Source: a virus (Duplodnaviria > Heunggongvirae > Uroviricota > Caudoviricetes). Taken from it: a stretch of DNA of 35,233 nucleotides. Below, in pieces: positions 1-28,814 of the stretch. A program made the translations under genes and the position numbers. The DNA is taken from IMG/VR virus record IMGVR_UViG_2529292998_000007, positions 1 through 35,233 of that record; one strand, given 5' to 3'. The notes below the pieces were generated by a model. The model was not told where the DNA came from and did no database searches. It saw only the letters and a list, made by a program, of their open reading frames with translations. The first letter of the stretch is position 1, and each line of letters begins with the position of its first letter.

Positions 1-1362
1 ATGTTTAAACCGGAACTCCTTTCCCCGGCGGGAACGCTGAAAAATATGCGTTACGCTTTCGCTTATGGCGCAGATGCTGTTTATGCGGGCCAGCCGCGTT
101 ATTCCCTGCGTGTGCGCAACAACGAATTCAACCACGAAAATCTTCAGCTCGGCATCAATGAAGCCCACGCGCTGGGGAAAAAGTTTTATGTCGTGGTCAA
201 CATTGCACCGCACAACGCCAAGCTGAAAACCTTTATCCGTGACCTGAAACCGGTGGTGGAAATGGGGCCGGATGCGCTGATTATGTCCGATCCAGGGCTG
301 ATTATGCTGGTGCGTGAGCACTTCCCTGAAATGCCGATCCACCTTTCGGTGCAGGCTAACGCCGTGAACTGGGCGACGGTGAAATTCTGGCAGCAAATGG
401 GCCTGACCCGCGTGATCCTCTCTCGCGAGCTGTCGCTGGAAGAGATTGAAGAGATCCGCAATCAGGTGCCGGATATGGAGATCGAGATCTTCGTTCACGG
501 CGCGCTGTGCATGGCCTACTCCGGTCGCTGCCTGCTCTCTGGCTATATCAACAAGCGCGACCCGAACCAGGGCACCTGCACCAACGCCTGCCGCTGGGAG
601 TACAACGTCCAGGAAGGGAAAGAAGATGATGTTGGCAACATCGTACACAAGTACGAGCCGATTCCGGTGCAAAATGTTGAGCCGACGCTGGGTATCGGCG
701 CACCAACCGACAAAGTGTTTATGATCGAAGAGGCCCAGCGTCCGGGCGAGTATATGACCGCGTTTGAAGATGAGCACGGCACTTACATCATGAACTCGAA
801 AGATCTGCGCGCCATCGCCCATGTAGAACGCCTGACCAAAATGGGCGTGCATTCGCTGAAAATCGAAGGTCGTACCAAATCTTTCTACTATTGTGCACGC
901 ACCGCACAGGTTTACCGCAAAGCTATCGATGACGCCGCTGCGGGAAAACCGTTCGATACCAGCCTGCTGGAAACTCTGGAAGGTCTGGCGCATCGTGGCT
1001 ATACCGAAGGTTTCCTGCGTCGTCATACTCACGACGATTATCAGAACTACGAATACGGTTATTCAGTTTCTGACCGCCAGCAGTTTGTTGGTGAGTTTAC
1101 CGGTGAGCGCAAGGGGGACCTCGCGGCGGTAGCGGTGAAAAATAAATTCTCCGTTGGCGACAGCCTTGAGCTGATGACGCCGCAAGGCAACATTAATTTT
1201 ACCCTTGAGCACATGGAAAACGCCAAAGGCGAAGCTATGCCGATAGCACCAGGCGATGGTTATACTGTGTGGCTCCCGGTCCCGCAGGATCTTGAGCTCA
1301 ATTACGCGCTGCTGATGCGTAATTTCTCCGGGGAAACCACGCGTAATCCCCACGGTAAGTGA
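1..1362 (+). CDS. yegQ: U32-family peptidase-like protein YegQ (tRNA hydroxylation protein TrhP); 5' end may lie upstream of the window
   Basis: 453-aa ORF whose length and sequence match E. coli YegQ as I recall it; host-like GC; the synteny yegQ-cyaR-ogr matches the E. coli K-12 locus. Confidence 0.88.
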   Translation: MFKPELLSPAGTLKNMRYAFAYGADAVYAGQPRYSLRVRNNEFNHENLQLGINEAHALGKKFYVVVNIAPHNAKLKTFIRDLKPVVEMGPDALIMSDPGLIMLVREHFPEMPIHLSVQANAVNWATVKFWQQMGLTRVILSRELSLEEIEEIRNQVPDMEIEIFVHGALCMAYSGRCLLSGYINKRDPNQGTCTNACRWEYNVQEGKEDDVGNIVHKYEPIPVQNVEPTLGIGAPTDKVFMIEEAQRPGEYMTAFEDEHGTYIMNSKDLRAIAHVERLTKMGVHSLKIEGRTKSFYYCARTAQVYRKAIDDAAAGKPFDTSLLETLEGLAHRGYTEGFLRRHTHDDYQNYEYGYSVSDRQQFVGEFTGERKGDLAAVAVKNKFSVGDSLELMTPQGNINFTLEHMENAKGEAMPIAPGDGYTVWLPVPQDLELNYALLMRNFSGETTRNPHGK

Positions 1363-3591: not shown

Positions 3592-6039
3592 TTAACCGTC
3601 ATGCATCATGCTGGCACGGGCGCGCGCACGTTTATCCCGCTCGTATTTTTCGAGCGCATCCTGTAACTGGCGGTCAAGCTGTGTTCCCGGCGCAGTACCG
3701 CCCGTCAGGTTGATGTGATATTCGTTTTTACTCTGGTCCACATAAGAGCGACCAGCCGGTGCCGTGACCGGCTGATAAGCCTGATAGCCTGCATAAGAGC
3801 TGGTCGCCGGAATATAACCACCGGTGCCATACGTGGCGGCATGAGTCCTTGCGGCGGTCTGGTCAAGTGTGTCTGACTCTTTGTTGATAACACCGAGTTT
3901 TTCCAGTACCCAGTCAATACCGCTGCGCAGTTTGTTGAACGCATTAAGCGGCAGCATCAGCGCGTCAGCCAGTGCCTGCCCGAACATGACGCCCGTGTCA
4001 CGGCAACGGTTCAGGGTGTCCTGGGTGGCTTTGACCGGGGCAATCAGGTTTTTAAACCACTGCCACGCGGCCTGTAACTTTTCGCCCAGCCAGTCAAACA
4101 CCGGTTTCAGTGGCGTGAACAGCTCCCCCACCGGCGCAAATGCCGCTTTCAGCCCTTCAACCACACCGCCAAAGAATGCGCTGACAGGCTCCCAGTATTT
4201 ACGGATAAGCAACGCCCCGGCGACAATGGCGGCCACCACAGCCACAACCGGCCAGCTAATCGCCCCGATGGCCGTCATAACGGCACTACCAACCGTCGTG
4301 AAGATTGCCCCCATTGCGCCTGCTGCCGCGATGATGGCATTGATGCCGGTGATAACCGGCCAGGCTACAAGACCAATTGCACCGATGATGCCAGTAAGCG
4401 CCAGCGCACCACCGGCAATGAGGCCAATGGTTGACGCCAGTGATTTGTTTTTCTGTATCCAGCCGTCGAGTTTTAACACATACTTTGTGGCCGTCTGCGT
4501 GAGCTTACGTAGCGCGCCTTCCTGCTGGTCAAACAGGTCAGTCCCCACCGCCTCATAAGCGGACTGAAACTCCTTAAAGTCACCGCCGAGGTTGTCCTGC
4601 ATGATATTTACCAGCTCTGCGGTCTTTCCGTCTGAGGCTTTAAACGCAGCGGTCAGTTTGTCCAGCTTTCCGGTTGAGGCGGCAGTCATCAGCACGGCGG
4701 CGGCTGAACTGGCCTCCTCCCCGAAAATGGTTTTCATGTATTCAGCCTGCTGGGCAGTACCGAGCCGGTTTTTCTCAAAACTGGCCTGCATTTCTTTCAG
4801 AATGGTAAATACTGGTCGGGTGTTTCCCTTACCGTCTGAGGTTTTCACACCAAGCTCTTTGAGTGCATCCCATGCTTTTCCCGTCGGTGCCTGCAGGCGG
4901 CTTAACACGGCACGGCTTCCCGTCCCCGCCATTGAACCGGTAATTTTTGCATCATGCAGCGCTCCGACCATTGCGGCGGTTTCTTCAATGCTGACACCGG
5001 CATTTTTTGCCACAGGTGCGGCATAGGTCAGCGCATCGCTCATGCCGTCAAAATCGGCGGCGGTTTTGTTCATCGTCATGGAGAGAACATCCCCGATATG
5101 AGCGACCTTATCGTTTGAAAGCTGAAAGGCGGATTTCATCCCCATCAGCAGGGCGGCGTTTTCTTCCATCGTGCGGCGGTTCGCCAGTGCCATATTCAGC
5201 GTGACCGGCGTTGCCGCCTGAATGGCATCAACATCCCCACCGGCTTTCGCAATGATAATCTGTGCACCGGCTGCATCATCCGCCGAGGCGGCAGTATTGT
5301 CACCGAGCTGGCGCGCCTGCTTGCGGAGCGCGGTCATTTCGGCGGAGTCTTTTGCCACACCGAGCACGGCCTGCAATTCTGAGTTTTTCTGCGCAAACTC
5401 ATAACCGGGCATCAGCAGCTTAACACCGGCCATCGTTCCCGCCGCCGCAATCCCCACACCGGCAGCGCCCACCGAGGCCATATTTCCTGCCAGTTCCTTT
5501 CCGGCCTGATAACGCTGTTTGACTGCGTTAAGTTTGGCCTGTTGCGCACTGACACGCGCCAGCGCGTCACGCTGACGGTTAAGTTGTGCGGTGGTTTCAC
5601 TGATACAGTTTTTCAGTCCCTGCTCATCATGTGCAAGATTGCGGGTATTAATTCCCACAGCGGCCAGTTCCCGCTGCTGGCGTTTAACGGAATCTGTCAG
5701 GCGGTTATATTTCGCCTGTAAGTCCTCCGCCGCACGCTTTGCGGATTCCAGCACTTTCGCCTGAGCACGGGTCGGACGTTCGGTGTTTTTAAACTGTGTG
5801 GCAAGGGCTTCGGCCTCCTGCCGTGCCTTTTCAAGTGCATGACCAGTTACGGCAAGCTGTGCGCTGGTCTTACGGAATCCCTCAATACGGGATGCCTGAC
5901 CGTTCAGCTCGCGCAGTGATTTTTGTGTTTCCCGGATATCCCCCGACAGCGACTTGCTCGCTGTGCGGATGGATTTAAACGGGCGGGATGCCTGGTCAAC
6001 AGCCCTGAGCAATACCTGTAATTTTACATTGTTACTCAT
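3592..6039 (-). CDS. T: Tail tape measure protein T
   Basis: 815 aa; N-terminal coiled-coil, Ala/Gly-rich hydrophobic central segments typical of tape measure proteins; same length as P2 gpT. Confidence 0.9.
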   Translation of the reverse strand: MSNNVKLQVLLRAVDQASRPFKSIRTASKSLSGDIRETQKSLRELNGQASRIEGFRKTSAQLAVTGHALEKARQEAEALATQFKNTERPTRAQAKVLESAKRAAEDLQAKYNRLTDSVKRQQRELAAVGINTRNLAHDEQGLKNCISETTAQLNRQRDALARVSAQQAKLNAVKQRYQAGKELAGNMASVGAAGVGIAAAGTMAGVKLLMPGYEFAQKNSELQAVLGVAKDSAEMTALRKQARQLGDNTAASADDAAGAQIIIAKAGGDVDAIQAATPVTLNMALANRRTMEENAALLMGMKSAFQLSNDKVAHIGDVLSMTMNKTAADFDGMSDALTYAAPVAKNAGVSIEETAAMVGALHDAKITGSMAGTGSRAVLSRLQAPTGKAWDALKELGVKTSDGKGNTRPVFTILKEMQASFEKNRLGTAQQAEYMKTIFGEEASSAAAVLMTAASTGKLDKLTAAFKASDGKTAELVNIMQDNLGGDFKEFQSAYEAVGTDLFDQQEGALRKLTQTATKYVLKLDGWIQKNKSLASTIGLIAGGALALTGIIGAIGLVAWPVITGINAIIAAAGAMGAIFTTVGSAVMTAIGAISWPVVAVVAAIVAGALLIRKYWEPVSAFFGGVVEGLKAAFAPVGELFTPLKPVFDWLGEKLQAAWQWFKNLIAPVKATQDTLNRCRDTGVMFGQALADALMLPLNAFNKLRSGIDWVLEKLGVINKESDTLDQTAARTHAATYGTGGYIPATSSYAGYQAYQPVTAPAGRSYVDQSKNEYHINLTGGTAPGTQLDRQLQDALEKYERDKRARARASMMHDG

Positions 6040-8632: not shown

Positions 8633-9565
8633 TTAAGTTAGAAGCCGTTCCTCGTAATCGTCGGTTGTGGGCATTTTTCCGATCTCTGTCATGCGACACA
8701 CTAATCGGGATAAAAGCACTCGAACCTCAATTATATGCTCAACTAAAAAGTTATCTGACGTAGCTCCCCCATGCACTGCCTTCGAACGGTAGTCATACAG
8801 CTTCTTAACCCTACGATAGGTGGCTAAACGATCAGGTCCTCGCTCCTCAAGATATGCTGCGGCCATAAGAGCAAGACGAAAACGAAGCTCTGAATTGATT
8901 CCAAAGAGCGCTTCAAATCCTGCCCATAAAGCAGCAGCAGCCATTCTCAAATTCGCGTGTTGGTTGTGAGTTGTTAAAGAATCAATAGCGAGCCGGAATG
9001 CTGGTTGCTCTAGCAGATCTATCCAACGCTTGAGATTCTCTTGAACCCAGTCGAGAGACTCTACTGATATCTCTACACTTGGGCTTATTCTCCGAACTGC
9101 CGGCACGTCCTCAAGAAGTTGGACTTCACACGAGTTGGCTTGAAGAGCAGGGAATACATCCCAAGATGCACTTGCTACTGCAGGAACAAGTATATCGGTG
9201 AGTGTGCGGCATCGGATCGCGGATATGATCCACCATCCGATAGTCAGGTCTGATTGAGAAAATTTCGACTCACTGCTTTGCAACGCAAGCTCATGCGTAA
9301 CTGCGGGCATATGACGAGCAACAGCGCTGAGTAGCGACTTGCTCTTAAGCGCTGTGGCTAACTCTATCTCTCCTGGTGGATGAAGTACCTCCCTTAATTC
9401 ACCTACGTCTTGGAAAACATAAGGCCCGTTTCGAAACGTCAATCCTGACAAAGCGAAACAGATCTCATTCTGACTGGATAAACTAGATATTCGAGTTGCA
9501 GCGTATTTCTTGCGAGACTCGAAGTAGTTAAGTAAACCTGACAATTTTTCTTTGTTGATTTCCAT
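8633..9565 (-). CDS. Hypothetical 310-aa cargo protein at the P2 Z/fun position; no family assigned (contains one R-x4-H motif, RSKAVH, which is weak HEPN-like evidence only)
   Basis: Single long ORF flanked by non-coding DNA (8238-8632 and 9566-9718) between FI and G; composition differs from the neighbouring tail genes; no similarity to a P2 structural protein that I can recognise. Confidence 0.5.
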   Translation of the reverse strand: MEINKEKLSGLLNYFESRKKYAATRISSLSSQNEICFALSGLTFRNGPYVFQDVGELREVLHPPGEIELATALKSKSLLSAVARHMPAVTHELALQSSESKFSQSDLTIGWWIISAIRCRTLTDILVPAVASASWDVFPALQANSCEVQLLEDVPAVRRISPSVEISVESLDWVQENLKRWIDLLEQPAFRLAIDSLTTHNQHANLRMAAAALWAGFEALFGINSELRFRLALMAAAYLEERGPDRLATYRRVKKLYDYRSKAVHGGATSDNFLVEHIIEVRVLLSRLVCRMTEIGKMPTTDDYEERLLT

Positions 9566-13705: not shown

Positions 13706-14053
13706 TCAACTCACAGGGATGGTTAATGAAAGTGGCTGGCCGGTGTCGTTGTGCTGGCCGGTTAACGTGACCGTCATTCGCCCGTCAAAACTGCGCTCAG
13801 TGGTGACGGATGACAGGGTGACGCGGGGTTCCCATTTCAGCACCGCCATGTAACAGGCGACCTTAATCTGCAACTCAAGCGCCGGGGTCTGCGGCTGGTC
13901 AATCATTGATGCCAGCAACGAGCCGTAATCACGACGCATCACCCGTGAGCCGACCGGTGTGCGCAGGATATCGCCGATACTCTGGCTGATATGCTCAAGG
14001 TCAGTGACAGTCAGGCCATCACTGCGATTCATTCCGAGATAACGCGCTGTCAT
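13706..14053 (-). CDS. W: Baseplate protein W (GPW/gp25 family)
   Basis: 115 aa; position and size match P2 gpW. Confidence 0.88.
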   Translation of the reverse strand: MTARYLGMNRSDGLTVTDLEHISQSIGDILRTPVGSRVMRRDYGSLLASMIDQPQTPALELQIKVACYMAVLKWEPRVTLSSVTTERSFDGRMTVTLTGQHNDTGQPLSLTIPVS

Positions 14054-14685
14054 AAAGGACTCCCGGTTGTGCCGCCGCTGTCGCCGGGGTGTTTATGGGT
14101 ATGCAGTACCTTACCGTTTGATGAGAGTTCACCGCCGGTGTGTTCAATGTTGCCGCGCATCGTCCCGCCCTTCTGCACTTCCAGCGTGCCGGTAATCAGC
14201 CTGTTGGTGCAGACCACCTCCGGGGTGTCCAGGGTGACGCGGGTTGATGCTTTCACCATGACCACCGGCACCGTGGCAGTAACAGAATCAGAAGCCGTCA
14301 CGCTGGCCGTTTTAATTCCGCTTACCGTGAGTGCACTGGTTTCGGGTTCATATTCAATCACCGCCCCGTCAGGGAAACGGATATGCAGGGCATCCGCCGA
14401 CGCAGACGGCGCGGGGTTATCGCCGGAATAAATCCCCGGCAGAACGAATGCCGTGTCGAGTTCACCGCCCACGGCCAGAATCAGCACCTGTTCCCCCACG
14501 GAAGGTGCCCACCATGTGCGCGAACGACCGGCGCGATGGGTCAGCCACTGAAGCCAGTCGGAGCACATGCCGCCGGTCTGCACACGGCAGCGACCGGCGT
14601 TAAGGTCGGTTTCGACGATAATGCCGGTGCGAATCATGTTGCGCAGTGCGCGCGCGAGTTCCTGAATATTTGCGAGAGTGTTCAT
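14050..14685 (-). CDS. V: Baseplate spike protein V
   Basis: 211 codons from the MNTLANIQELARALRNMIRTG start, which is the P2 gpV N-terminus; the six-frame ORF extends 6 codons further upstream. Confidence 0.88.
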   Translation of the reverse strand: MNTLANIQELARALRNMIRTGIIVETDLNAGRCRVQTGGMCSDWLQWLTHRAGRSRTWWAPSVGEQVLILAVGGELDTAFVLPGIYSGDNPAPSASADALHIRFPDGAVIEYEPETSALTVSGIKTASVTASDSVTATVPVVMVKASTRVTLDTPEVVCTNRLITGTLEVQKGGTMRGNIEHTGGELSSNGKVLHTHKHPGDSGGTTGSPL

Positions 14686-14768
14686 GCATGTGAGATTGCA
14701 CAATATATAAAAGTTATGCTATCTGGATTCATTTGTAGAACTACCAGACAACATTCAAGGAGAGCGTA

Positions 14769-15554
14769 ATGGTCAGCTATAATGTGACTAATGTGTGGGG
14801 GCTAATCGTTTTTTTCCTTTGTAGCTTTGCAGTATTAGCATTTTTTAGTTTTGGTAAAAGTAACCTTATGAGGCTTATTGCACATTATTTCAATTTTGGA
14901 TATTCAGACAAAAAATTAAAAAGACTTGACCGCGAGTGGCGCGACATTCAACTATTTAAAATAATTAACGGAATCAATGTATCAGGCATTGAAAATGTGA
15001 GAATGATACAGCAGGGACTGATTGATGGAAAACTAAAAACATCGTATTTTTTCCTTACTCGCATCTGGGGTGACATAACAAAACCACCACACATAATTAA
15101 AACAATAATTGTAATTCTGTCCAGTATTTTTTACATTCTCCTCGCATGTTACATACACAACGAACAATCCGTTATAGTAAGGGATGCCATAGGCATACCA
15201 TATAAAAACATGATGTACTATGTTTATAGTGACAAAGTTCTTTTATCCTTCAAAAATAAAGCAGTTGAATTTAATAAAACTTATAGCCTTGCCAATTGCA
15301 AGAGACTGCAAAACGTATTTATAAAAGACACACTTCCTGAGATCGCCTGCAATAAGCTCTTACAGCTAAACGAGGAGAACTCCGAATGGTTAAGCCAGGA
15401 GATTAAAGATAATAACAGTCACAAAAAAGCATTATTAATACTATCCCTCGTCTATTTCACTTCAGGTCTGGTTATATTCCTGTCATATACAAAATTCTTT
15501 TACGCCAATAAGAAGGTTTTAGAATACAAAGCATCAAATAAAAATCACTCATAA
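14769..15554 (+). CDS. Hypothetical 261-aa predicted membrane protein (moron at the S/V junction); function unknown
   Basis: Markedly AT-rich ORF on the opposite strand to all flanking late genes; three hydrophobic helix-length segments (VWGLIVFFLCSFAVLAFFSF, IIKTIIVILSSIFYILLACYI, ALLILSLVYFTSGLVIFLSYT); followed by a hairpin. Confidence 0.6.
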   Translation: MVSYNVTNVWGLIVFFLCSFAVLAFFSFGKSNLMRLIAHYFNFGYSDKKLKRLDREWRDIQLFKIINGINVSGIENVRMIQQGLIDGKLKTSYFFLTRIWGDITKPPHIIKTIIVILSSIFYILLACYIHNEQSVIVRDAIGIPYKNMMYYVYSDKVLLSFKNKAVEFNKTYSLANCKRLQNVFIKDTLPEIACNKLLQLNEENSEWLSQEIKDNNSHKKALLILSLVYFTSGLVIFLSYTKFFYANKKVLEYKASNKNHS

Positions 15555-15560
15555 ACCTCT

Positions 15561-15595
15561 AAACATTGAGCGACCAGCATGGCCGCTCAATGTTT
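15561..15595. terminator. Stem-loop (12-bp perfect stem AAACATTGAGCG / CGCTCAATGTTT, 11-nt loop) between the cargo gene and S; probable bidirectional terminator
   Basis: Perfect inverted repeat read directly from the sequence; lies in the 71-bp gap between two convergent genes. Confidence 0.5.
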
Positions 15596-15625
15596 AATTG
15601 CGCATCAGCCTCTGCCTGGATAAAA

Positions 15626-16078
15626 CTAACACTCAAGGTGAGCCAGGATAATCTCTTCAATCATCTGCACATCCTCACCGGTAAAGCCGAGCAGGGGACG
15701 CGCCGGATAATCAATTTTCTTACCGTCTTTCCGGTTTTCTTCCGACAGACCAAACTGATGCACACTGGCGATTTTCGGCGACTTCCCGCCGTAAAATTCC
15801 ATTGATGCCTGCTCCGGGCTGGCACGGATATGCAAAAAACGACTGGTAATAAGTTTCGCAAACATTTTTCGCTTAACGCGACCGGTCTTTTTTCTGACGC
15901 TCTGCTGCTGGCGTGGCGCGTAGGGTGTGCCGTCCGGGGCTTTCTGTGCCATCACCCGACGCTGCTGACTCTGCCGCAGACGTTTCGCCAGTTCGGCACT
16001 CAGTCGCCGACGCCCAGACGGTGACAGCGATTCAGTCAGTCCGGCCAGCCGGTCTTCAAAACGCTTAAACTCATTCAT
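15626..16078 (-). CDS. S: Tail completion protein S
   Basis: 150 aa; position and size match P2 gpS (virion morphogenesis family). Confidence 0.88.
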   Translation of the reverse strand: MNEFKRFEDRLAGLTESLSPSGRRRLSAELAKRLRQSQQRRVMAQKAPDGTPYAPRQQQSVRKKTGRVKRKMFAKLITSRFLHIRASPEQASMEFYGGKSPKIASVHQFGLSEENRKDGKKIDYPARPLLGFTGEDVQMIEEIILAHLEC

Positions 16079-18280: not shown

Positions 18281-18484
18281 TTACTCCCACAGATTGACAG
18301 TTTCAGCCACGGGCGCGGTCTGAACGTCGGGCAGTTCGACGGCGGTGCCGTGCGGCAGCACCGCACCCAGTTCAGCCAGTCCCGGATTTGCGGCGAGCAC
18401 AGTCTCGACCACGCCCTCAGTGCGCCCGTAATACCGGACACAAATGGCGTCGAGCGTGTCGCCCTGTAGCGCAAAGGTCTTCAT
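18281..18484 (-). CDS. X: Tail protein X
   Basis: 67 codons from the MKTFALQGDTLDAIC start, matching the size of P2 gpX; its ATG overlaps the stop of L (ATGA overlap). Confidence 0.78.
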   Translation of the reverse strand: MKTFALQGDTLDAICVRYYGRTEGVVETVLAANPGLAELGAVLPHGTAVELPDVQTAPVAETVNLWE

Positions 18485-18993
18485 CAGATTTGACTCACGA
18501 TGCAGCGCGGCTTGCCCTGGATACGCGCCACCGCCCAGCGCATATCCCGCCACAGTTCATCAATGGTGCTGTCAATGCTGTCGGCCTTCTTGTCGCCTTT
18601 CGCACTGGCATCCACGCCGCGGTAACGCTCATAAAGCGACGCGGTCGCCATCGCACACACGGCGCGCTCGTAGTAAAAAACCTTGATGCTTTCACCGTCG
18701 ATGTCGTCCGCCGGGACGTCCGCCAGACGCGTAAAACCGGCGGCAATTTTCTGTTCGCGGTACTCGTACAGCTCCGCATTCGTCTCCGCCATGCCTGACT
18801 TGATGGCCTCACGCAGACGGGCGGGGGCGACGGTCTGCTCAAGGCGCATACGTTCCCGGACGCGCTTCGGGTCGATATCGGGAAAAAAGAACGTGTTTTT
18901 AATCACCGGCTCGTCGCCTGCCGGTTGCGGGATGACCACCGTACCCTCACCGGACACGGGAGCCTCCTTTCGCGGAATAATCAGCGTCATCAT
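18484..18993 (-). CDS. L: Capsid completion protein L
   Basis: 169 codons from the MMTLIIPRKEAPVSGEG start; position and size match P2 gpL; the six-frame ORF extends further 5'. Confidence 0.82.
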   Translation of the reverse strand: MMTLIIPRKEAPVSGEGTVVIPQPAGDEPVIKNTFFFPDIDPKRVRERMRLEQTVAPARLREAIKSGMAETNAELYEYREQKIAAGFTRLADVPADDIDGESIKVFYYERAVCAMATASLYERYRGVDASAKGDKKADSIDSTIDELWRDMRWAVARIQGKPRCIVSQI

Positions 18994-19092
18994 GACCACC
19001 TCTGAAAAGTCGGGCGGTGGACGCCGGTGCAGTGTCAGGTGATTCACCGTCACTGACCGGCGTGCCGCCCTGGCGCGGGGCGCATTCGGTTG

Positions 19093-19836
19093 TTAACTGG
19101 CTTTCTTTTTCGGGCGTCCACGTTTTGCCGGTGTCACGCTCCGGGTCTTACGCGGAGTGCGGGTGGCCGCTTTGGGCTGCGGCTCCGGCTTCGGTTTCAG
19201 CTCCCGCTCCAGTCGTTCAATCTCTTTTTTGACGCCTGCCTGACAGTCGAGCTGTGTCGCACGTTGCAGGTGCGCCAGCGCACCGGCGGCATCACCACCG
19301 TCACGCAGAAACAGACCGGTGATTTTGTGCAGCTTTGCGCGCACTTCATCAGGCATGTCAGCCGTGGCGGTCAGTTCGAGGGTGTCCGTCAGCAGGCGGG
19401 TATCCACAGACTCACCGGCAGCGTGGGCGCGCATGGCCGCAAGTGCCACCTCCTCGGTGAACATGTACGGCGGGGTGCGGCGGTGTTTACCCGGCATGGT
19501 CAGACCGTACTTCAGGGCATAACGGGCAATCTCCAGCGCACCGGCAATATCGCCGGTATCCAGACGCCACAGCATGACCGTCATCAGAATGTCATCCTGT
19601 GCACCTTTGCCCTGCTCCAGCACGCCGTTCACCCACGGCAACCAGAACGGCAGCAGTTCGCGTTTTTTCGCGGCCTTCAGCTCTTTTGAATAAATCGCTT
19701 TCAGTGTGCGCTGGTCTGCGGCCAGCTTGACCAGCATCTGCTCATAGACAGTTGCATGTCGCAGCGGGGCGGCTTCCCGCTGCGCGGTCATCGCTGCCGA
19801 GACCCGCATCATGTGGCGCTGTGCGGGACTCGTCAT
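19093..19836 (-). CDS. M: Terminase endonuclease (small) subunit M
   Basis: 247 aa with a basic C-terminal tail; position and size match P2 gpM. Confidence 0.88.
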   Translation of the reverse strand: MTSPAQRHMMRVSAAMTAQREAAPLRHATVYEQMLVKLAADQRTLKAIYSKELKAAKKRELLPFWLPWVNGVLEQGKGAQDDILMTVMLWRLDTGDIAGALEIARYALKYGLTMPGKHRRTPPYMFTEEVALAAMRAHAAGESVDTRLLTDTLELTATADMPDEVRAKLHKITGLFLRDGGDAAGALAHLQRATQLDCQAGVKKEIERLERELKPKPEPQPKAATRTPRKTRSVTPAKRGRPKKKAS

Positions 19837-25093: not shown

Positions 25094-25123
25094 CAAAACC
25101 ATGCATGGTTATGCATGGTTTTG
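25094..25123 (-). terminator. Hairpin (13-bp stem CAAAACCATGCAT / ATGCATGGTTTTG, loop GGTT) just downstream of the ATPase gene stop
   Basis: Perfect inverted repeat read directly; T-containing tract on the minus strand after the stem; separates the cargo cassette from cos. Confidence 0.5.
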
Positions 25124-25127
25124 GTTG

Positions 25128-27065
25128 TTAGTTCAATAAATCTTTATCAAGAGCGGTATAATTTATCTTTAATGATTTATCATCTGGATTAAAATACCGA
25201 CCAACAATCAAATCGGTATTTTCATATTCTGGATTAATCTCCGATGTCGCATAAATTATTTGAAAATCATATTGATATGATTGAGTTTCTTGTACTATTA
25301 TTTTCTGCAGATTGTGACTGCGCTCTTTCTCCATTCCACCATCGTCAATTCCATCAAGCATTAGGAAACGAGGTAATCTCATGTATTTTTTTTCAATACT
25401 TGCAGTTAACAATGCTAAATGAAAGAGATGTCTTAATACAACTGCTGAACTTTCTGAAAAATACTTAGACCCATTTACATAAACAGTATTATCGGCAAAG
25501 CTAAAATTAACTTTTCTAGGATCAATAAATTCAGTCTGCAATGGAAGATCTTTTTTAAGAAGTCTTTTCATAATGTTTTCTATAGTTTTAGAAATATCCT
25601 TCTTCCTATATTCCTCTTTACTCTCCAAAGATTCAATTAAAGAGGACAATCTCTCCTTCTCTGACTGCAGACTATCACGATCTTTTTGCAAATCAGATAT
25701 TACATCACTAAGTTTTTGTAATTCACAAGCCTGTTTAATTTCTTCTTCAACACGTCCCAGAGCCTTAGTAAGAGTTTCAAACTCTATTTCATAGGCATTT
25801 TCCCAAACCTTAGAGACTTCTTCATATTCACGAATTAAATCTCGCACTTTTTGCTTTAAAGCAGGAGATTGGCTCTTAAGCTCTCTCAGTTTTACATAAT
25901 TATGCTCAAGAAGATCTCTGGATTCTTTTAATTGGATAGAAATCTCATTTTTCATCCTTAATAATTGAGGAGCATCACTACCCTCTGGCGCGTGATTTTT
26001 ACATAATGAGCACTCATTTTCAGAGGAAATATTCAACTCACTTAAACAACTGGGACAAAATTGAAATTTAACGTTGCTAAAATAGTCTCTGGCAATACTT
26101 GATTCATTAAGAGAGCGCAATCTGGATTCTAACTCATTAATGAACATTTCAGAGTCAGCTATCTCCATTTCTAACATATGGATACTGTCAATATTTTTTA
26201 CTTCTTCTTCCTTCGCTTTATTTAAATTTTTTCGAAGGTTGTTAGTTTTAGTTTTATCAGCATTTTTATCATTAACAGAAGAGTTATTACTCTCTTTGAG
26301 AGAGATAAGCTCGCCATTGATCTTTTCTTTCTTCTCTCTTAGCTCTTTTATTTTATCGTCAATAAAACTTACATGCTGCGATTGCCCAGAGCGTCCAAGA
26401 ACTTTAAATATGCTTTTCAGCTCAACAATTTTTGTCGAAAGTTCAGCATCAACCTGTTTAAGCCTAATCAAAGAGCTATAAAGTTTGTCATCAAATATAC
26501 CACATAAATAATCACCAATAGTCTCTCGTGTTAGAGCTCTATCAAAATTATCGTTCCTAAATATAGGACTATGAAGAGATGGCTGATCTGCATATAATAC
26601 ACGTAGGATTTGATGCATTGTTAAAATTGAAGCACCCTCTCCTTGAGCTAGAGGCATATCTAAAGCATTTAGAATTACCTGAGAAAAACTCAGTGATTTT
26701 TCTGAACGCTTAAAAGGATAAGTTTGCCACTGACTCGGTGATGAGTTAAGAGCTTTATCCATCGAGCCCCAAAAAATACTCAACGGTCGCATGGATTCTG
26801 AACTTATCTCCCGCTTAAAACAGGCAAGATTATTATTCAAAAGCACTTCAACCATGGTAAATGAACATAAAAGAGCTGTTGGTTTCAAGCTAATATTTTC
26901 AGCACCAAGTGAAAATGCTAAAAGATCCATAACAGTAGTTTTGCCAGAGCTATTTCGCCCCCTTATTACATTTACCCCTTTATGGAAAACACAGCTAAAT
27001 GCTTCATGCCCAGCTTGGAAAACTTTTAATTTACTAACAAAAAAAGATGGATTAAGAATAGTCAT
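25128..27065 (-). CDS. Rad50/SbcC/RloC-like ABC-type ATPase with central zinc-hook-like CxxC-x13-CxxC motif; last gene of the cargo cassette
   Basis: 645 aa; Walker A GRNSSGKTT at residues 35-43; long Lys/Glu-rich heptad-like segments flanking CPSC...CSLC at residues 337-355; C-terminal hydrophobic stretch ending in Asp (RFLMLDGIDDGG) consistent with Walker B; AT-rich. Confidence 0.7.
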   Translation of the reverse strand: MTILNPSFFVSKLKVFQAGHEAFSCVFHKGVNVIRGRNSSGKTTVMDLLAFSLGAENISLKPTALLCSFTMVEVLLNNNLACFKREISSESMRPLSIFWGSMDKALNSSPSQWQTYPFKRSEKSLSFSQVILNALDMPLAQGEGASILTMHQILRVLYADQPSLHSPIFRNDNFDRALTRETIGDYLCGIFDDKLYSSLIRLKQVDAELSTKIVELKSIFKVLGRSGQSQHVSFIDDKIKELREKKEKINGELISLKESNNSSVNDKNADKTKTNNLRKNLNKAKEEEVKNIDSIHMLEMEIADSEMFINELESRLRSLNESSIARDYFSNVKFQFCPSCLSELNISSENECSLCKNHAPEGSDAPQLLRMKNEISIQLKESRDLLEHNYVKLRELKSQSPALKQKVRDLIREYEEVSKVWENAYEIEFETLTKALGRVEEEIKQACELQKLSDVISDLQKDRDSLQSEKERLSSLIESLESKEEYRKKDISKTIENIMKRLLKKDLPLQTEFIDPRKVNFSFADNTVYVNGSKYFSESSAVVLRHLFHLALLTASIEKKYMRLPRFLMLDGIDDGGMEKERSHNLQKIIVQETQSYQYDFQIIYATSEINPEYENTDLIVGRYFNPDDKSLKINYTALDKDLLN

Positions 27066-27552
27066 ATCTAAACTCCATTAACTTCGTTCTATCTTTTAAA
27101 CCATCTTTTCCAACCAAATGGAATTTAGATAGTGTGTCTATGATAAATGTATTAATAGTTTTATTCGTATTAATAAAATTATTAATAGAAAGTAATAAGC
27201 CATCTGGAACAGACTTATCTGTTCTCTTTATAATGTTTTTCTCAAGACAATCCATCTCAACCAACCCAGTAGCTGCAAGACATCTTATTGCTGCCATTTG
27301 AATTTCATACATATCTCTGAATGTAGATGTAACATTAATAGGATCCCGATATATATTAGAATACTTCTTCGCTTCTTTCTTCATTGAAGAATAATTATGA
27401 GGCATTCTAATTTCAGATACCAAAGCAGGAAATAGCAGATAGAAGTCCAAAATCCTAGCCTTATCTACCTCAATTTCATTTACATGGTCTATAAGAGCAA
27501 TCATTCTGAATAAACAATGATATGCATCATATGCTGGATGGTAAATTAGCAT
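27052..27552 (-). CDS. Hypothetical 166-aa protein, third gene of the cargo cassette
   Basis: ORF overlapping both neighbours (by 7 bp upstream, 14 bp downstream), suggesting translational coupling; AT-rich; no recognisable motif. Confidence 0.55.
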   Translation of the reverse strand: MLIYHPAYDAYHCLFRMIALIDHVNEIEVDKARILDFYLLFPALVSEIRMPHNYSSMKKEAKKYSNIYRDPINVTSTFRDMYEIQMAAIRCLAATGLVEMDCLEKNIIKRTDKSVPDGLLLSINNFINTNKTINTFIIDTLSKFHLVGKDGLKDRTKLMEFRYDYS

Positions 27553-28109
27553 TTATCCCACCTTATATGGCAATTGCCACCCAGAAAAAATAGTAATCCC
27601 AAGAGATCTTTTGCTGTTAGCTCTAGCAAGTTCTCTCCCAAAGACGAATATAATTCATCAATTATTGAAGCGATTTTCTCATCAACAATCACTCTGGAGC
27701 TATCCGCTTCTATAAGTGGTGTTACTTTCGTTATAAAATCAAAATGAATTTGATCTAAAATTATTACAAATATTCTTTGTGCAGTTTTTGACGTCTGGCG
27801 ACGCATTATGGCTTTTGTCGCTTTTTCCTTCATCTGCTTAGCTAAAAACAACAAATCTTTTCTATTACTCTCGAGTAATTTAGCGTCTAACCCCCGAACA
27901 TCAATATCAGGCTGAAGGGACATATAATGCTCTAGTTCAGCACAAAACCCCGGAACCGCTTCCCCTATATCACCTCTCTTCAAACACTCATAAAGTTTCT
28001 GTATCTCCCTGTTAGTTCCTTTAACAGGATAATTGAATATATGATTAGTCTGATCACCAGAAATTATGTTGCCATTTGTTACGGTATTTCCTGACTGTTC
28101 GATAGACAC
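27546..28109 (-). CDS. Hypothetical 187-aa protein, second gene of the cargo cassette (Gly/Asn/Thr-rich N-terminus)
   Basis: ORF in the same operon-like arrangement; its N-terminus QSGNTVTNGNIISGDQTNH resembles the C-terminus of the upstream 63-aa ORF. Confidence 0.55.
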   Translation of the reverse strand: MSIEQSGNTVTNGNIISGDQTNHIFNYPVKGTNREIQKLYECLKRGDIGEAVPGFCAELEHYMSLQPDIDVRGLDAKLLESNRKDLLFLAKQMKEKATKAIMRRQTSKTAQRIFVIILDQIHFDFITKVTPLIEADSSRVIVDEKIASIIDELYSSLGENLLELTAKDLLGLLFFLGGNCHIRWDKC

Positions 28110-28120
28110 ACCAACACCTC

Positions 28121-28312
28121 TTAATGTGACCTATCCTGATTACCGCCAACAATACTTCCATTTGTAACACTGTTACCAGTTTGAGTAACTGTATGATTGT
28201 TTGAGTTCACGCTGGAATTACCAATTTGCTTTCTAGATGAAAACACGACACGAATCGACCAACCAGCTCCCAGTCCGACAAAGAAAGTGATGATATGTGT
28301 AATCCACTCCAT
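28121..28312 (-). CDS. Hypothetical 63-aa small membrane protein, first gene of the cargo cassette
   Basis: N-terminal hydrophobic helix (WITHIITFFVGLGAGWSIRVVF) followed by an Asn/Ser/Thr/Gly-rich tail; 12 bp upstream of the next ORF; could alternatively be a remnant of a duplicated 5' end. Confidence 0.4.
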   Translation of the reverse strand: MEWITHIITFFVGLGAGWSIRVVFSSRKQIGNSSVNSNNHTVTQTGNSVTNGSIVGGNQDRSH

Positions 28313-28814
28313 TCTTGTATCCTTAGCATAAATTTTTGTACTCTTATAATAAATCGAATACTTTCTATCTACAACTAAGGAACATCAACTAGTTATGTAA
28401 TGCAAATCACATACTCTCGATGTAACCACTGACAGACAAAACACAGATACTGCCGTTATAATTGCCAACGTTACTATTTAAACAATAATTCGTAGGATTC
28501 TATTGCTTTGCTTAGTGGTATATGACCACTGACAGCACGAATGATATACCCAATCCTAATTACAACGAATTAAACTAAGGCTCGCATATAACTCTATCAT
28601 TCTCTATTTCTCAGCAACCTCAAAAACTGTATAAAAACACAGTACCACATAACCACCAAAACAGGGAAGCAAAAAATTAAAGCCCTATTAACTGAATACT
28701 CTTGGTAACACTAATCGGTTTTACGATCTAAAAAATACAAAAACCGAGAATTGATTCAACACTTTGTTTTTTATATAAAAAGATACATTTTAGTACATTT
28801 AATACACTATTTGA

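Follow-up and report, generated by a model that had tools for sequence, protein, structure and literature searches.

The window, by which we mean the whole stretch of 35,233 nucleotides that was analysed, carries at positions 14769 to 15554 of its plus strand an open reading frame with an ATG start encoding 261 aa, as given by the open reading frame listing. A Shine-Dalgarno sequence, AAGGAG (14757-14762), is located 6 nt 5′ of the ATG. The flanking genes are all on the minus strand. The left boundary is formed by V (14050-14685, minus strand), which opens the V late operon and encodes the baseplate spike gpV (Pfam Phage_base_V, 4.5e-20, and Phage_spike, 2.2e-28, together with the P2 annotation), and the right boundary by S (15626-16078, minus strand), which closes the O late operon and encodes the tail completion protein gpS (Pfam Phage_tail_S, 1.4e-43); gpR and gpW were also identified by Pfam. 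The GC content of the reading frame is 0.335 (GC3 0.36) compared to 0.56-0.61 for its flanks, that is about 33% versus about 58%. An AT-rich plus-strand reading frame amid minus-strand late genes, as described in the initial annotation, is therefore what we observe here.

Comparison with bacteriophage P2 gave 97.5% identity over window positions 1507-24994 and 99.3% DNA identity over the locus itself (14650-15680). By BLASTP, 257 of 261 residues of the window protein are identical to those of P2 Orf30 (GenBank AF063097, protein AAD03281). The four substitutions S118A, I141T, N176D and N204D (window to P2) are the sole differences between the two, and the position between V and S, the strand, the upstream pV/Ogr region and the downstream hairpin are all the same. 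PHROG 2407, the family of P2 Orf30, covers the window protein from end to end (residues 1-261 of 261, E 1.6e-147). As judged by these alignments, the gene is P2's own orf30, long known, annotated as ‘nonessential’ in the P2 GenBank record and carried here by a P2-like prophage, an identity which we regard as essentially certain. The initial annotation had proposed a cargo gene that was acquired independently and is not the same as P2 orf30; homology to P2 orf30 was found, at the levels given above, and this proposal had to be given up.

According to the P2 annotation, V starts at the ATG at 14685 and not at an upstream TTG at 14703, so the V-orf30 spacer measures 83 bp (14686-14768). P2 record features mapped onto the window place in this spacer the late promoter pV and the binding site of the activator Ogr, in addition to the orf30 Shine-Dalgarno sequence. 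The Ogr site lies at about 14727-14754 on the minus strand, stopping 15 nt short of the start codon of orf30. No match to the sigma-70 consensus was observed on the plus strand 5′ of 14769 in a consensus promoter scan, and a pair of hexamers picked out by eye (TTGCAC...TATCTG) is too weak to be claimed as an orf30 promoter.

Between the convergent orf30 and S genes lies an inverted repeat (15560-15596), which corresponds to positions 9397-9433 of the P2 record, annotated there as a putative rho-independent terminator of the O operon on the minus strand. The hairpin noticed initially downstream of the gene is real, as shown by folding: the plus strand forms a 13-bp outer stem followed by 3 further pairs (dG -22.4 kcal/mol, z -5.3) and the minus strand 18 continuous pairs (dG -28.3 kcal/mol, z -5.5), and none of 200 shuffled sequences folded as well, for either strand. 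A simple terminator scan made no call at this position because the hairpin has no clear T-run, and hence no clear U-tract in the transcript. It probably also ends the orf30 transcript.

Architecture and relatives of the Orf30 protein

Three 19-residue Kyte-Doolittle windows exceed 1.6, at residues ~9-28, 108-128 and 221-240, consistent with the three hydrophobic segments already recognised in this 261-aa protein, and Orf30 is predicted to be a three-pass inner-membrane protein. Predicted TM1 (residues 9-28, 14793-14852, plus strand as for all the following segments) reaches a hydropathy of 2.4. It is followed by loop 1 (residues 29-107, 14853-15089), predicted from charge, conservation and the AlphaFold2 model to be cytoplasmic, basic and helical, with modelled helices at residues 30-40, 48-67 and 74-86. 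The most conserved motif of the family, D-x-Q-L-F-[KR]-x-x-N-G-I-N-V, is located in this loop, in which columns Q61, G68, D76 and G87 are conserved. Predicted TM2 (residues 108-128, 15090-15152, hydropathy up to 2.46) leads to loop 2 (residues 129-220, 15153-15428), predicted to be periplasmic on the basis of charge, a cysteine pair and the AlphaFold2 model, which places four beta-strands at residues 141-173, then helices, with block-mean pLDDT of 72-91 over the loop. The conserved pair consists of C177 (15297-15299) and C194 (15348-15350); C194 is invariant, and all 28 family members have a cysteine no more than 4 columns away from C177. Predicted TM3 (residues 221-240, 15429-15488, hydropathy up to 2.25) precedes a basic C-terminal tail (residues 241-261), predicted to be cytoplasmic. 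The mean pLDDT of the whole model is 79.3.

Over the 28 family members, the net charge per sequence is +5.0 for loop 1, around 0 for loop 2 and +2.2 for the C-terminal tail, and the N-terminus contains no K or R. This family-wide charge distribution, together with the conserved cysteine pair, indicates a predicted N-out/C-in topology with a basic, helical cytoplasmic loop of ~80 residues and a beta-rich periplasmic domain of ~90 residues, the latter probably carrying a disulfide bond. We also considered a lipoprotein signal, which was rejected: C18 is not conserved in the family and no lipobox is visible upstream of it. Similarly, a holin does not fit. Holins have roughly 60-150 aa and consist almost entirely of membrane helices, whereas Orf30 has 261 aa with ~170 residues in soluble loops and is encoded outside the lysis cassette (Y-K-lysA-lysB-lysC), where holin genes belong.

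Among alleles, Orf30 changes fastest in its first two membrane helices. Conservation throughout the family is seen in the cytoplasmic motif and in the periplasmic pair of cysteines. TM1 is the most variable part of the protein, 75% of its positions varying among 46 alleles; 76% of TM2 positions vary in the same set. This variability may reflect a low constraint on helices serving as anchors.

Searches for described families were largely negative. The window protein has no Pfam family at E≤0.1 and no match in NCBIfam, and Orf30 matched none of the 5027 defence models of PADLOC-DB v2.0 at E≤1, nor did its Serratia and Enterobacter relatives. A sequence profile search of the PDB gave a single chance match (E 0.039). 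With the pLDDT 79.3 model, no Foldseek match had an E-value lower than 0.045 in BFVD or lower than 0.037 in the PDB; the top PDB rows, claudin/TARP-type folds with TM-scores of 0.15-0.2, were treated as not significant, and no pore-former or ion-channel match was observed in the fold search. Members of the family match PHROG 2407 only, apart from the undescribed phrog_24380 and phrog_31151 (one member each), and no characterised exclusion family. A ‘FliL’ label carried by the Buttiauxella homologue was discarded, as no FliL match was found in Pfam.

One weak link to an annotated domain could be drawn, to DUF6216. Nine of the 28 family members match the Pfam model weakly along its length (best E 8.7e-07), at scores that do not reach its gathering threshold of 27.3 bits (12-22 bits in the listed examples). 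The DUF6216 protein WP_000115390.1 is encoded in the retron-Eco1 prophage remnant of E. coli BL21-AI, like Orf30 in the S-V slot and on the opposite strand, and is similar to it in size (268 aa) and in having three hydrophobic segments. Its BLASTP E-value is 0.016 and hhalign against the Orf30 family gives a probability of 60% (E 8.4e-05), limited to the C-terminal 105 columns, in which the cysteine pair and the last membrane helix (TM3) align. The BL21 protein differs in its shorter loop 1, and no loop-1 motif was aligned. The true orf30 allele of B strains is carried by their second prophage; in strain B-DidR it corresponds to WP_000490543.1 and lies next to trhP/yegQ.

Distribution and evolution of the V/S cassette

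orf30 was found in 464 of 5426 complete E. coli genomes (~8.5%). The V-S region is present in 1587 E. coli genomes, and in 460 of these at least 80% of the query, which includes orf30, is covered. orf30 is thus carried by about 29% of E. coli P2-like prophages and missing from about 70%, most of which have an empty V-S spacer of 66 bp: V and S are 66 bp apart at locus L002 and in 26 of 45 matches sampled at even spacing from the 1587 genomes. Other P2-like prophages have unrelated cargo in this slot. These alternative cargos (a 347-aa protein at L003, two small genes at L004 and a 273-aa protein at L084) have no match to a defence model and no informative Pfam match, and an attempt to deduce the function of orf30 from the company found at the slot failed, since they are uninformative.

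Homology with empty-site prophages breaks exactly at the V ATG and resumes at the S stop codon, and the 83-bp spacer is without homology to their 66-bp spacer. As read from these junctions, orf30 is an optional cassette which replaces the whole V-S intergenic region and brings its own version of the pV/Ogr promoter region along with the hairpin, a putative terminator. That the V/S site is a known variable one, as the initial annotation held, is confirmed by the empty sites and the other cargos; consistently, published work already counts the orf30 locus, together with the Z and TO regions, among three sites of horizontal transfer in P2-like phages (PMC3091744; PMC6823313).

The features of orf30 recall the morons of lambdoid and other temperate phages, with which it shares its nature as an extra gene between genes adjacent in relatives, a deviant base composition and a downstream hairpin. 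However, orf30 has no detected promoter of its own, the upstream spacer carrying pV and the Ogr site. Moreover, a moron is a clean insertion, while the orf30 cassette replaces an intergenic region including the promoter of its neighbour.

Members of the family are hardly seen outside P2-like phages, and their position there is nearly fixed. All 80 IMG/VR loci of the family are at the V/S junction in the same divergent orientation, and relatives with identities down to 17-25% are found in this slot and orientation in genomes of Serratia and Buttiauxella as well as in unassigned contigs (metagenome and Logan). Full-length relatives at 16-45% identity share the conserved motifs and the cysteine pair. 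The Serratia homologue lies outside the pV region and overlaps S tail-to-tail; the Serratia-group alignment used as a query gave no confirmed locus in genome contigs, and the 28-sequence family alignment is too diverse for locus scanning. Relatives at 17-39% identity in the same slot of distant P2-like phages all have a GC content of 32-36%, and for this reason AT-richness is weak evidence for recent acquisition. Taken together, these comparisons show that the orf30 family has long resided in P2-like phages, locked to one position, and is not a recent arrival. A new, independent cargo merely using the P2 orf30 insertion point, which the GC contrast of 33% versus 58% might have evoked, has practically no probability left given the identity with P2 orf30, the presence of the same allele family in 464 E. 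coli genomes and the equally AT-rich divergent homologues in the same slot of other genera.

The orf30 gene is intact in 70 of 71 alleles. Its dN/dS is 0.37-0.67, below 1 in all ten pairs, without indels at up to 14% nucleotide divergence; that of neighbouring genes is 0.05-0.17 in most comparisons. The gene is under relaxed purifying selection. Its nucleotide diversity is 0.066, that of V 0.038 and of S 0.030; the values are 0.027 for the V-orf30 spacer and 0.017 for the orf30-S spacer. The V-orf30 spacer is near-invariant: the 71 alleles have 10 variants of it, none with more than 4 changes. Identity between the phages of E. coli and those of Serratia is 22% for Orf30 and 43-67% for its neighbours. 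The allele and dN/dS results show that orf30 is a real gene, in keeping with its assignment as a coding sequence from the reading frame, the P2 identity and PHROG 2407. A non-functional chance frame in an AT-rich spacer, as the lack of a family annotation, a function or a detected promoter could suggest, is hardly conceivable in view of this record, of the strong Shine-Dalgarno sequence, of full-length homologues at 17-45% identity with shared motifs and of an AlphaFold2 mean pLDDT of 79.

orf30 is also found intact in decayed prophages. In the defective prophage of E. coli B it is intact alongside truncated copies of S, D and the portal and tail tube genes, and in strain 1442 it is intact while V and S are frameshifted. 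A prophage remnant of Serratia rubidaea keeps an orf30 homologue and, in Pantoea, an orphan homologue lies beside an integrase fragment. As support for a role this retention is anecdotal, other phage genes being kept there too.

Possible roles of Orf30

orf30 appears not to be needed for virions and yet is kept, since it is absent from ~70% of relatives and intact in decayed prophages. No orf30 phenotype, exclusion included, and no expression data were found in the literature searched. Our reasoned guess, which we put forward tentatively, is that orf30 is an accessory envelope-level gene serving the lysogen, most likely by exclusion of other phages. Orf30 would serve the lysogen and not virion production; it would act at the cell envelope, where, much as in superinfection exclusion, it may hinder other phages at entry or at an early stage of infection. 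As an island of 33% GC, orf30 would probably be kept low by H-NS and be expressed only conditionally.

Several known systems offer partial parallels. The P2 genes old, tin and fun(Z) are, like orf30, non-essential and located at variable sites of P2, and have no sequence relation to it. They are low in GC, a property measured here for orf30 only. old and tin are proven phage-exclusion genes (PMC9122126) and are not annotated as membrane proteins (old encodes an AAA family ATPase in the P2 RefSeq record), while Orf30 is predicted to be polytopic. Membrane proteins encoded by phages or prophages that block phage DNA entry include T4 Imm, P22 SieA and HK97 gp15. YmfE/Kunado of e14, similarly a single prophage gene for a predicted membrane protein, is reported to be H-NS-silenced and to act after adsorption (preprint 10.64898/2026.09.05.749240). 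The analogy would be functional only: YmfE/Kunado was rejected as an Orf30 homologue, with an hhalign probability of 0.3% against the family profile and no PHROG or PADLOC cross-match.

The proposed silencing draws on the DUF6216 gene in the same slot of BL21-AI, which is reported to have an H-NS ChIP-seq peak and to be up in an hns/stpA double mutant (preprint 10.64898/2026.09.05.749240). The reported binding and silencing of this gene by H-NS argue against constitutive expression. The link to orf30 is a weak one, running by analogy through weak homology (hhalign 60%). In addition, as no sigma-70 consensus promoter is found upstream of orf30, its expression in the lysogen is unsupported.

The near-absolute V/S synteny and the near-invariant shared spacer may just as well point to a role linked with the expression of late genes. 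Orf30 would then be a lytic-cycle accessory protein, co-controlled with pV via the Ogr-bound spacer and not produced in the lysogen, with candidate roles in tuning lysis timing, in preparing the envelope for tail/spike passage or release, or in regulation or insulation at the boundary between pV and the O operon. The divergent orientation locked to V/S, in 80 of 80 IMG/VR loci as well as in Serratia, Buttiauxella, metagenome and Logan contigs, fits such a role, as does a spacer shared with pV that is far more conserved than orf30 itself, with an Ogr site ending 15 nt before the start codon and no independent sigma-70 promoter detected. Nevertheless, the gene is non-essential in the P2 record and absent from ~70% of E. 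coli P2-like prophages, it is intact where late genes are broken and stands alone in Pantoea. The Ogr site is centred ~40 bp 5′ of the ATG, which, inferred from the geometry of P2 pV, is misplaced for rightward activation, and the Serratia homologue lies outside the pV region, overlapping S tail-to-tail. We therefore consider a late lytic role unlikely.

An equally unlikely explanation is that Orf30 is a membrane-acting abortive-infection protein or toxic sensor-effector, which would depolarise or permeabilise the inner membrane upon perturbation by a phage and be H-NS-silenced because it is toxic. The predicted polytopic arrangement in the membrane, with one domain in the periplasm and another in the cytoplasm, would suit this role, and so would the AT-richness and the reported H-NS silencing of the gene in the same BL21 slot. 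P2-like prophages are rich in defence cargo (PMC9122126; PMC13586616), which counts in the same direction, and the prophage of the window itself carries a Lamassu-like/ABC-3C system. However, Orf30 has no similarity to a known Abi or defence model and no match to a pore-former or ion-channel fold, and the cassette is a single-gene one in E. coli, with no partner gene.

More improbable still is a conversion factor acting on host physiology and unrelated to phages, such as an immunity protein against a membrane-targeting colicin, tailocin or T6SS toxin, or a modulator of envelope stress or transport. The predicted three-pass inner-membrane architecture of Orf30 with a small periplasmic disulfide domain resembles the general layout of immunity proteins to pore-forming toxins, and the gene persists in prophage remnants; nevertheless, there is no homology to a named family, no linked toxin gene, and the family is almost confined to P2-like phages.

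Returning to exclusion of other phages by the lysogen, a broader version, which we regard as doubtful, would place Orf30 and DUF6216 in one hitherto unrecognised family of anti-phage factors, each encoded by a single gene and acting at the envelope. The family would have its own fold, occupy a dedicated third cargo slot of P2/186-like phages and normally be silenced by H-NS. This fold would combine three membrane helices serving as an anchor, a beta domain in the periplasm with a disulfide bond, and the conserved cytoplasmic motif. Such a family would explain the absence of an orf30 phenotype from the literature searched, silencing as reported for the BL21 gene in the same slot being a plausible reason for it.

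The gene and its locus are already known, as an annotated gene of a textbook phage and a listed horizontal-transfer site. What is new is its prevalence of ~29% among E. coli P2-like prophages, the distant relatives in the slot, the relaxed selection, the predicted topology and the link to DUF6216. Among the AT-rich accessory genes of P2, orf30 alone has no function reported in the literature searched. The predicted topology, the cytoplasmic motif, the periplasmic cysteine pair, a slot conserved across genera, and the presence of the gene in ~8.5% of complete E. coli genomes, with the allele of the defective E. coli B prophage intact, now offer handles on it. If Orf30 proved to be an exclusion factor, the V/S junction would be a third defence-cargo site, and the defence repertoire of P2-like phages would gain a new protein family.

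Identity of the gene and of its neighbourhood

The gene between V and S is a 261-aa ORF on the plus strand (14769..15554), which starts with ATG and carries a Shine-Dalgarno AAGGAG 6 nt upstream of it. As indicated by the initial annotation, it is an AT-rich ORF amid minus-strand genes: its GC content is 0.335 vs 0.56–0.61 in both flanks, and Pfam assigned the minus-strand neighbours to the P2-type baseplate spike V, tail-completion S and R, and W. The three membrane segments proposed for the protein were also recovered, as three 19-residue windows with a Kyte-Doolittle value >1.6 (TM1–TM3, approximately residues 9–28, 108–128 and 221–240).

The view of this gene as an independent cargo, separate from P2 orf30, did not hold, since the gene is orf30 itself. 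Positions 14650–15680 matched bacteriophage P2 over their full length by megablast, at 99.3% identity and on P2 features annotated 'orf30', 'S', 'V', 'terminator' and 'activator binding site', and the protein differs from P2 Orf30 at only 4 of 261 residues. It is thus an already known gene, labelled 'nonessential' in the P2 record. PHROG 2407 (database label: function unknown) covers the protein end-to-end (E 1.6e-147). Positions 1507–24994 are 97.5% identical to P2, and the window is therefore a P2-like prophage. Taken together, the initial observation was confirmed while its interpretation was supported in part: the S/V junction is indeed a known insertion point, P2-like phages being already known to carry horizontally acquired genes at the orf30 locus, as in the Z/fun and TO regions (PMC3091744). 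In the literature searched, no report was found on orf30 function or expression.

Surveys of defence hotspots in P2-like phages focus on the gpA–gpQ and Z/fun sites (PMC9122126; 10.1101/2024.10.15.618418; PMC13586616). At the gpA–gpQ hotspot, where P2 carries old and tin, an AT-rich island (~25100–28800) includes three minus-strand genes of 32–37% GC (25128–28109). They encode a 645-aa SMC/AAA ATPase (PADLOC LmuB, 4.5e-47), a 166-aa ABC-three-component (ABC-3C) middle component (Pfam MC5, 1e-52) and a 187-aa protein with a C-terminal Pfam CTD9 domain of ABC-3C systems (2e-29). As judged by these matches, a predicted Lamassu-like/ABC-3C defence system replaces old and tin. A 310-aa minus-strand ORF (8633–9565) occupies the Z/fun position, flanked by the tail-fibre assembly gene and the sheath gene, in a stretch of 44–46% GC; neither Pfam nor PADLOC gave a match, and it is therefore another uncharacterised cargo gene. 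The host flank encodes a U32-family peptidase (1–1362, plus strand; Pfam 5e-89). Since trhP adjoins the defective P2-like prophage of E. coli B (L008) at the matching position, the window prophage may, by position, occupy that integration site.

orf30 is an optional cassette

Among 5426 complete E. coli genomes, orf30 was present in 464, on the chromosome every time. The V–S region was found in 1587 of these genomes and included orf30 in 460 (~29%). In an evenly spaced sample of matches, most of those without orf30 span only 1155 bp, with V and S 66 bp apart. Homology between filled and empty sites ends exactly at the V start codon (ATG at 14685 in the P2 annotation) and restarts at the S stop codon, so that the cassette replaces everything between the two genes, pV promoter region and terminator included.

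The P2 pV late-promoter region is much studied. In the P2 record, its Ogr-activator binding site is located between V and orf30, at ~14727–14754 in the window. This region (14686–14768) is not homologous to the 66-bp spacer of the empty-site P2-like prophages, which are the commoner type (compared in L002, 937–1002), and the orf30 cassette has therefore brought or replaced its neighbour's promoter and the O-operon terminator. In the empty-site spacer, a GC-rich hairpin (GCCGCCGG...CCGGCGGC) immediately precedes V. The 83-bp spacer upstream of orf30 showed 10 variants with no more than 4 changes in 71 IMG/VR alleles, and a promoter scan found no consensus promoter upstream of orf30. The hairpin noticed downstream of the gene is real: the inverted repeat 15560–15596 folds at −22.4 and −28.3 kcal/mol on the two strands (z ~−5.4), none of 200 shuffles being as good, and the P2 record describes it as 'putative rho-independent terminator for O operon'. 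A clear U-tract is missing, and a simple terminator scan made no call there.

A different arrangement was observed in a Serratia ureilytica prophage (L006, 5886–6804), where a backbone-type pV region and GC hairpin are retained beside V and followed by the Orf30 homologue. The latter has its own AT-rich leader with TGCTAATAT, a possible extended −10 element (TGCTACAAT in locus L007). Its 3′ end and that of S overlap by 29 bp, no hairpin separates them, and late transcription of the O operon would therefore read through it in antisense.

Other ORFs in place of orf30 have been recorded (PMC6823313). The alternative cargos found here were a 347-aa ORF on the plus strand, two small ORFs on the minus strand and a second gene of 273 aa beside an Orf30 homologue; they gave no match to defence models or informative families. 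The 273-aa gene (L084, a relative's V–S locus, 4916–5737, minus strand) lies between the Orf30 homologue and S; its product has an N-terminal pair of hydrophobic segments and no NCBIfam or PADLOC match. The Orf30–S gap is similarly enlarged in three further relatives (L085, L087 and L088), and the phages with this second gene form a subgroup whose Orf30 homologue is 36–39% identical.

Conservation, persistence and predicted architecture

The Orf30 family is small, with 5 clusters at 90% identity among 5.8 billion proteins, and a profile search of 1.84 billion representatives retrieved 44 members, ~25 of them full length. Its genomic position is conserved across genera. An Orf30 homologue (34–99% identity) was found on the plus strand between minus-strand V and S at 80/80 IMG/VR loci, 4 of which are without one neighbour as they are cut by contig ends. 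The same slot is occupied at only 17–25% identity in P2-like prophages of Serratia ureilytica, Buttiauxella agrestis, a compost metagenome and Logan contigs. Divergence is greater in Orf30 than around it: the window and the Serratia phage share 22% identity for this protein, compared to 43–67% for J, V, R, W and S. Every homologue examined has 32–36% GC in a context of 46–59%; low GC is therefore a stable family trait and not a sign of recent arrival. One source names the Buttiauxella homologue (P0063) 'flagellar basal body-associated protein FliL', which looks misannotated since it has no FliL match in Pfam and is encoded at the V–S junction of a P2-like prophage.

Exceptions to this synteny were observed. 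A Serratia rubidaea remnant retains just ogr, V, the Orf30 homologue and an S fragment, and an Enterobacter copy stands at a contig end beside host genes. Two Pantoea loci (L093/L094, 6001–6777) carry an intact family gene (258 aa, 32% GC) without V or S, directly after a C-terminal fragment of a P2-type integrase and adjoining aroF-tyrA-pheA. In L093, another prophage, whose genes carry RelA_SpoT and TIR-fragment domains, is inserted alongside. In the defective P2-like prophage of E. coli B, orf30 is intact alongside truncated copies of S, D and the genes for portal and tail tube; in strain 1442 it is intact with V and S frameshifted. Such persistence, in anecdotal cases rather than a census, suggests that the host benefits from orf30 whether or not virions are made. 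The intact E. coli B allele is that of strain B-DidR, in its trhP-side prophage remnant.

orf30 encodes a real, selected and fast-evolving protein. Five alleles of 86–99% DNA identity showed no indel and no stop codon, and the 261-aa ORF was intact in 70/71 IMG/VR alleles, which encode 46 distinct proteins. The dN/dS was 0.37–0.67 across the five alleles vs 0.05–0.17 for V, W and S in nearly all comparisons, and nucleotide diversity was 0.066 for orf30, 0.038 for V, 0.030 for S, and 0.027 and 0.017 for the two spacers. Amino-acid variability is highest in the first two membrane helices (~75% of positions), compared to 25–38% of positions in the soluble loops. Invariant or near-invariant positions include G29, Q61, G68, D76, G87, C194, I212 and K254.

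Topology was predicted computationally. In 28 family members the N-terminal tail has no Lys or Arg, and net charge per sequence is +5.0 in loop 1 (29–107), ~0 in loop 2 (129–220) and +2.2 in the C-terminal tail. By the positive-inside rule, the N-terminus and loop 2 are thus predicted to be periplasmic, and loop 1 and the C-terminus cytoplasmic. The sole conserved cysteines are in loop 2: C194 is invariant, and 28/28 members have a Cys at C177 or no more than 4 columns away, a pair compatible with a periplasmic disulfide bond. An AlphaFold2 model built on 15 sequences (mean pLDDT 79.3, pTM 0.60) has a helical loop 1, four beta-strands then helices in loop 2, and a long helix from TM3 to the C-terminus.

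A possible DUF6216/H-NS link and a proposed role of Orf30

Pfam DUF6216 was matched by 9/28 family members, mostly under the gathering threshold and colinearly along the model. A second, 186-like prophage remnant of E. coli BL21-AI (L098), the one with retron Eco1, encodes a 268-aa 'DUF6216 family protein' (18404–19210) on the opposite strand between S and V, the same slot. This protein aligned with the Orf30 profile over 105 columns including the cysteine pair and TM3 (hhalign probability 60%, E 8e-5); a distant common origin seems likely. According to a 2026 preprint (10.64898/2026.09.05.749240), three H-NS ChIP-seq peaks occur in the retron Eco1 prophage, one of them at the BL21-AI gene, which is up-regulated in an hns/stpA double mutant. 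In the same preprint, H-NS silencing is shown for YmfE ('Kunado'), a predicted membrane protein from prophage e14 that blocks T5-like phages after adsorption. YmfE showed no homology to the Orf30 family profile, and this parallel is therefore an analogy only.

orf30 would benefit the lysogen rather than the virion, since it is dispensable, absent from most relatives and persistent in remnants. As a polytopic protein with a predicted periplasmic domain, Orf30 may act at the envelope, and the gene is probably H-NS-repressed, given its 33% GC, the lack of a consensus promoter and the BL21 precedent. The most plausible activity, which we put forward tentatively, would be to interfere with incoming phages as their genome enters the cell or just afterwards. 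Two rivals appear unlikely, and about equally so: a role late in the cycle, coupled to pV/Ogr, and an abortive or toxic membrane effector. A non-phage envelope function is the least probable of these.

The new points are descriptive and concern how prevalent orf30 is, a synteny kept strictly down to 17% identity, an AT-richness that stays constant, the predicted topology and the possible link to DUF6216 and H-NS; they mainly make a small, long-standing question of P2 biology, the function of orf30, easier to test.
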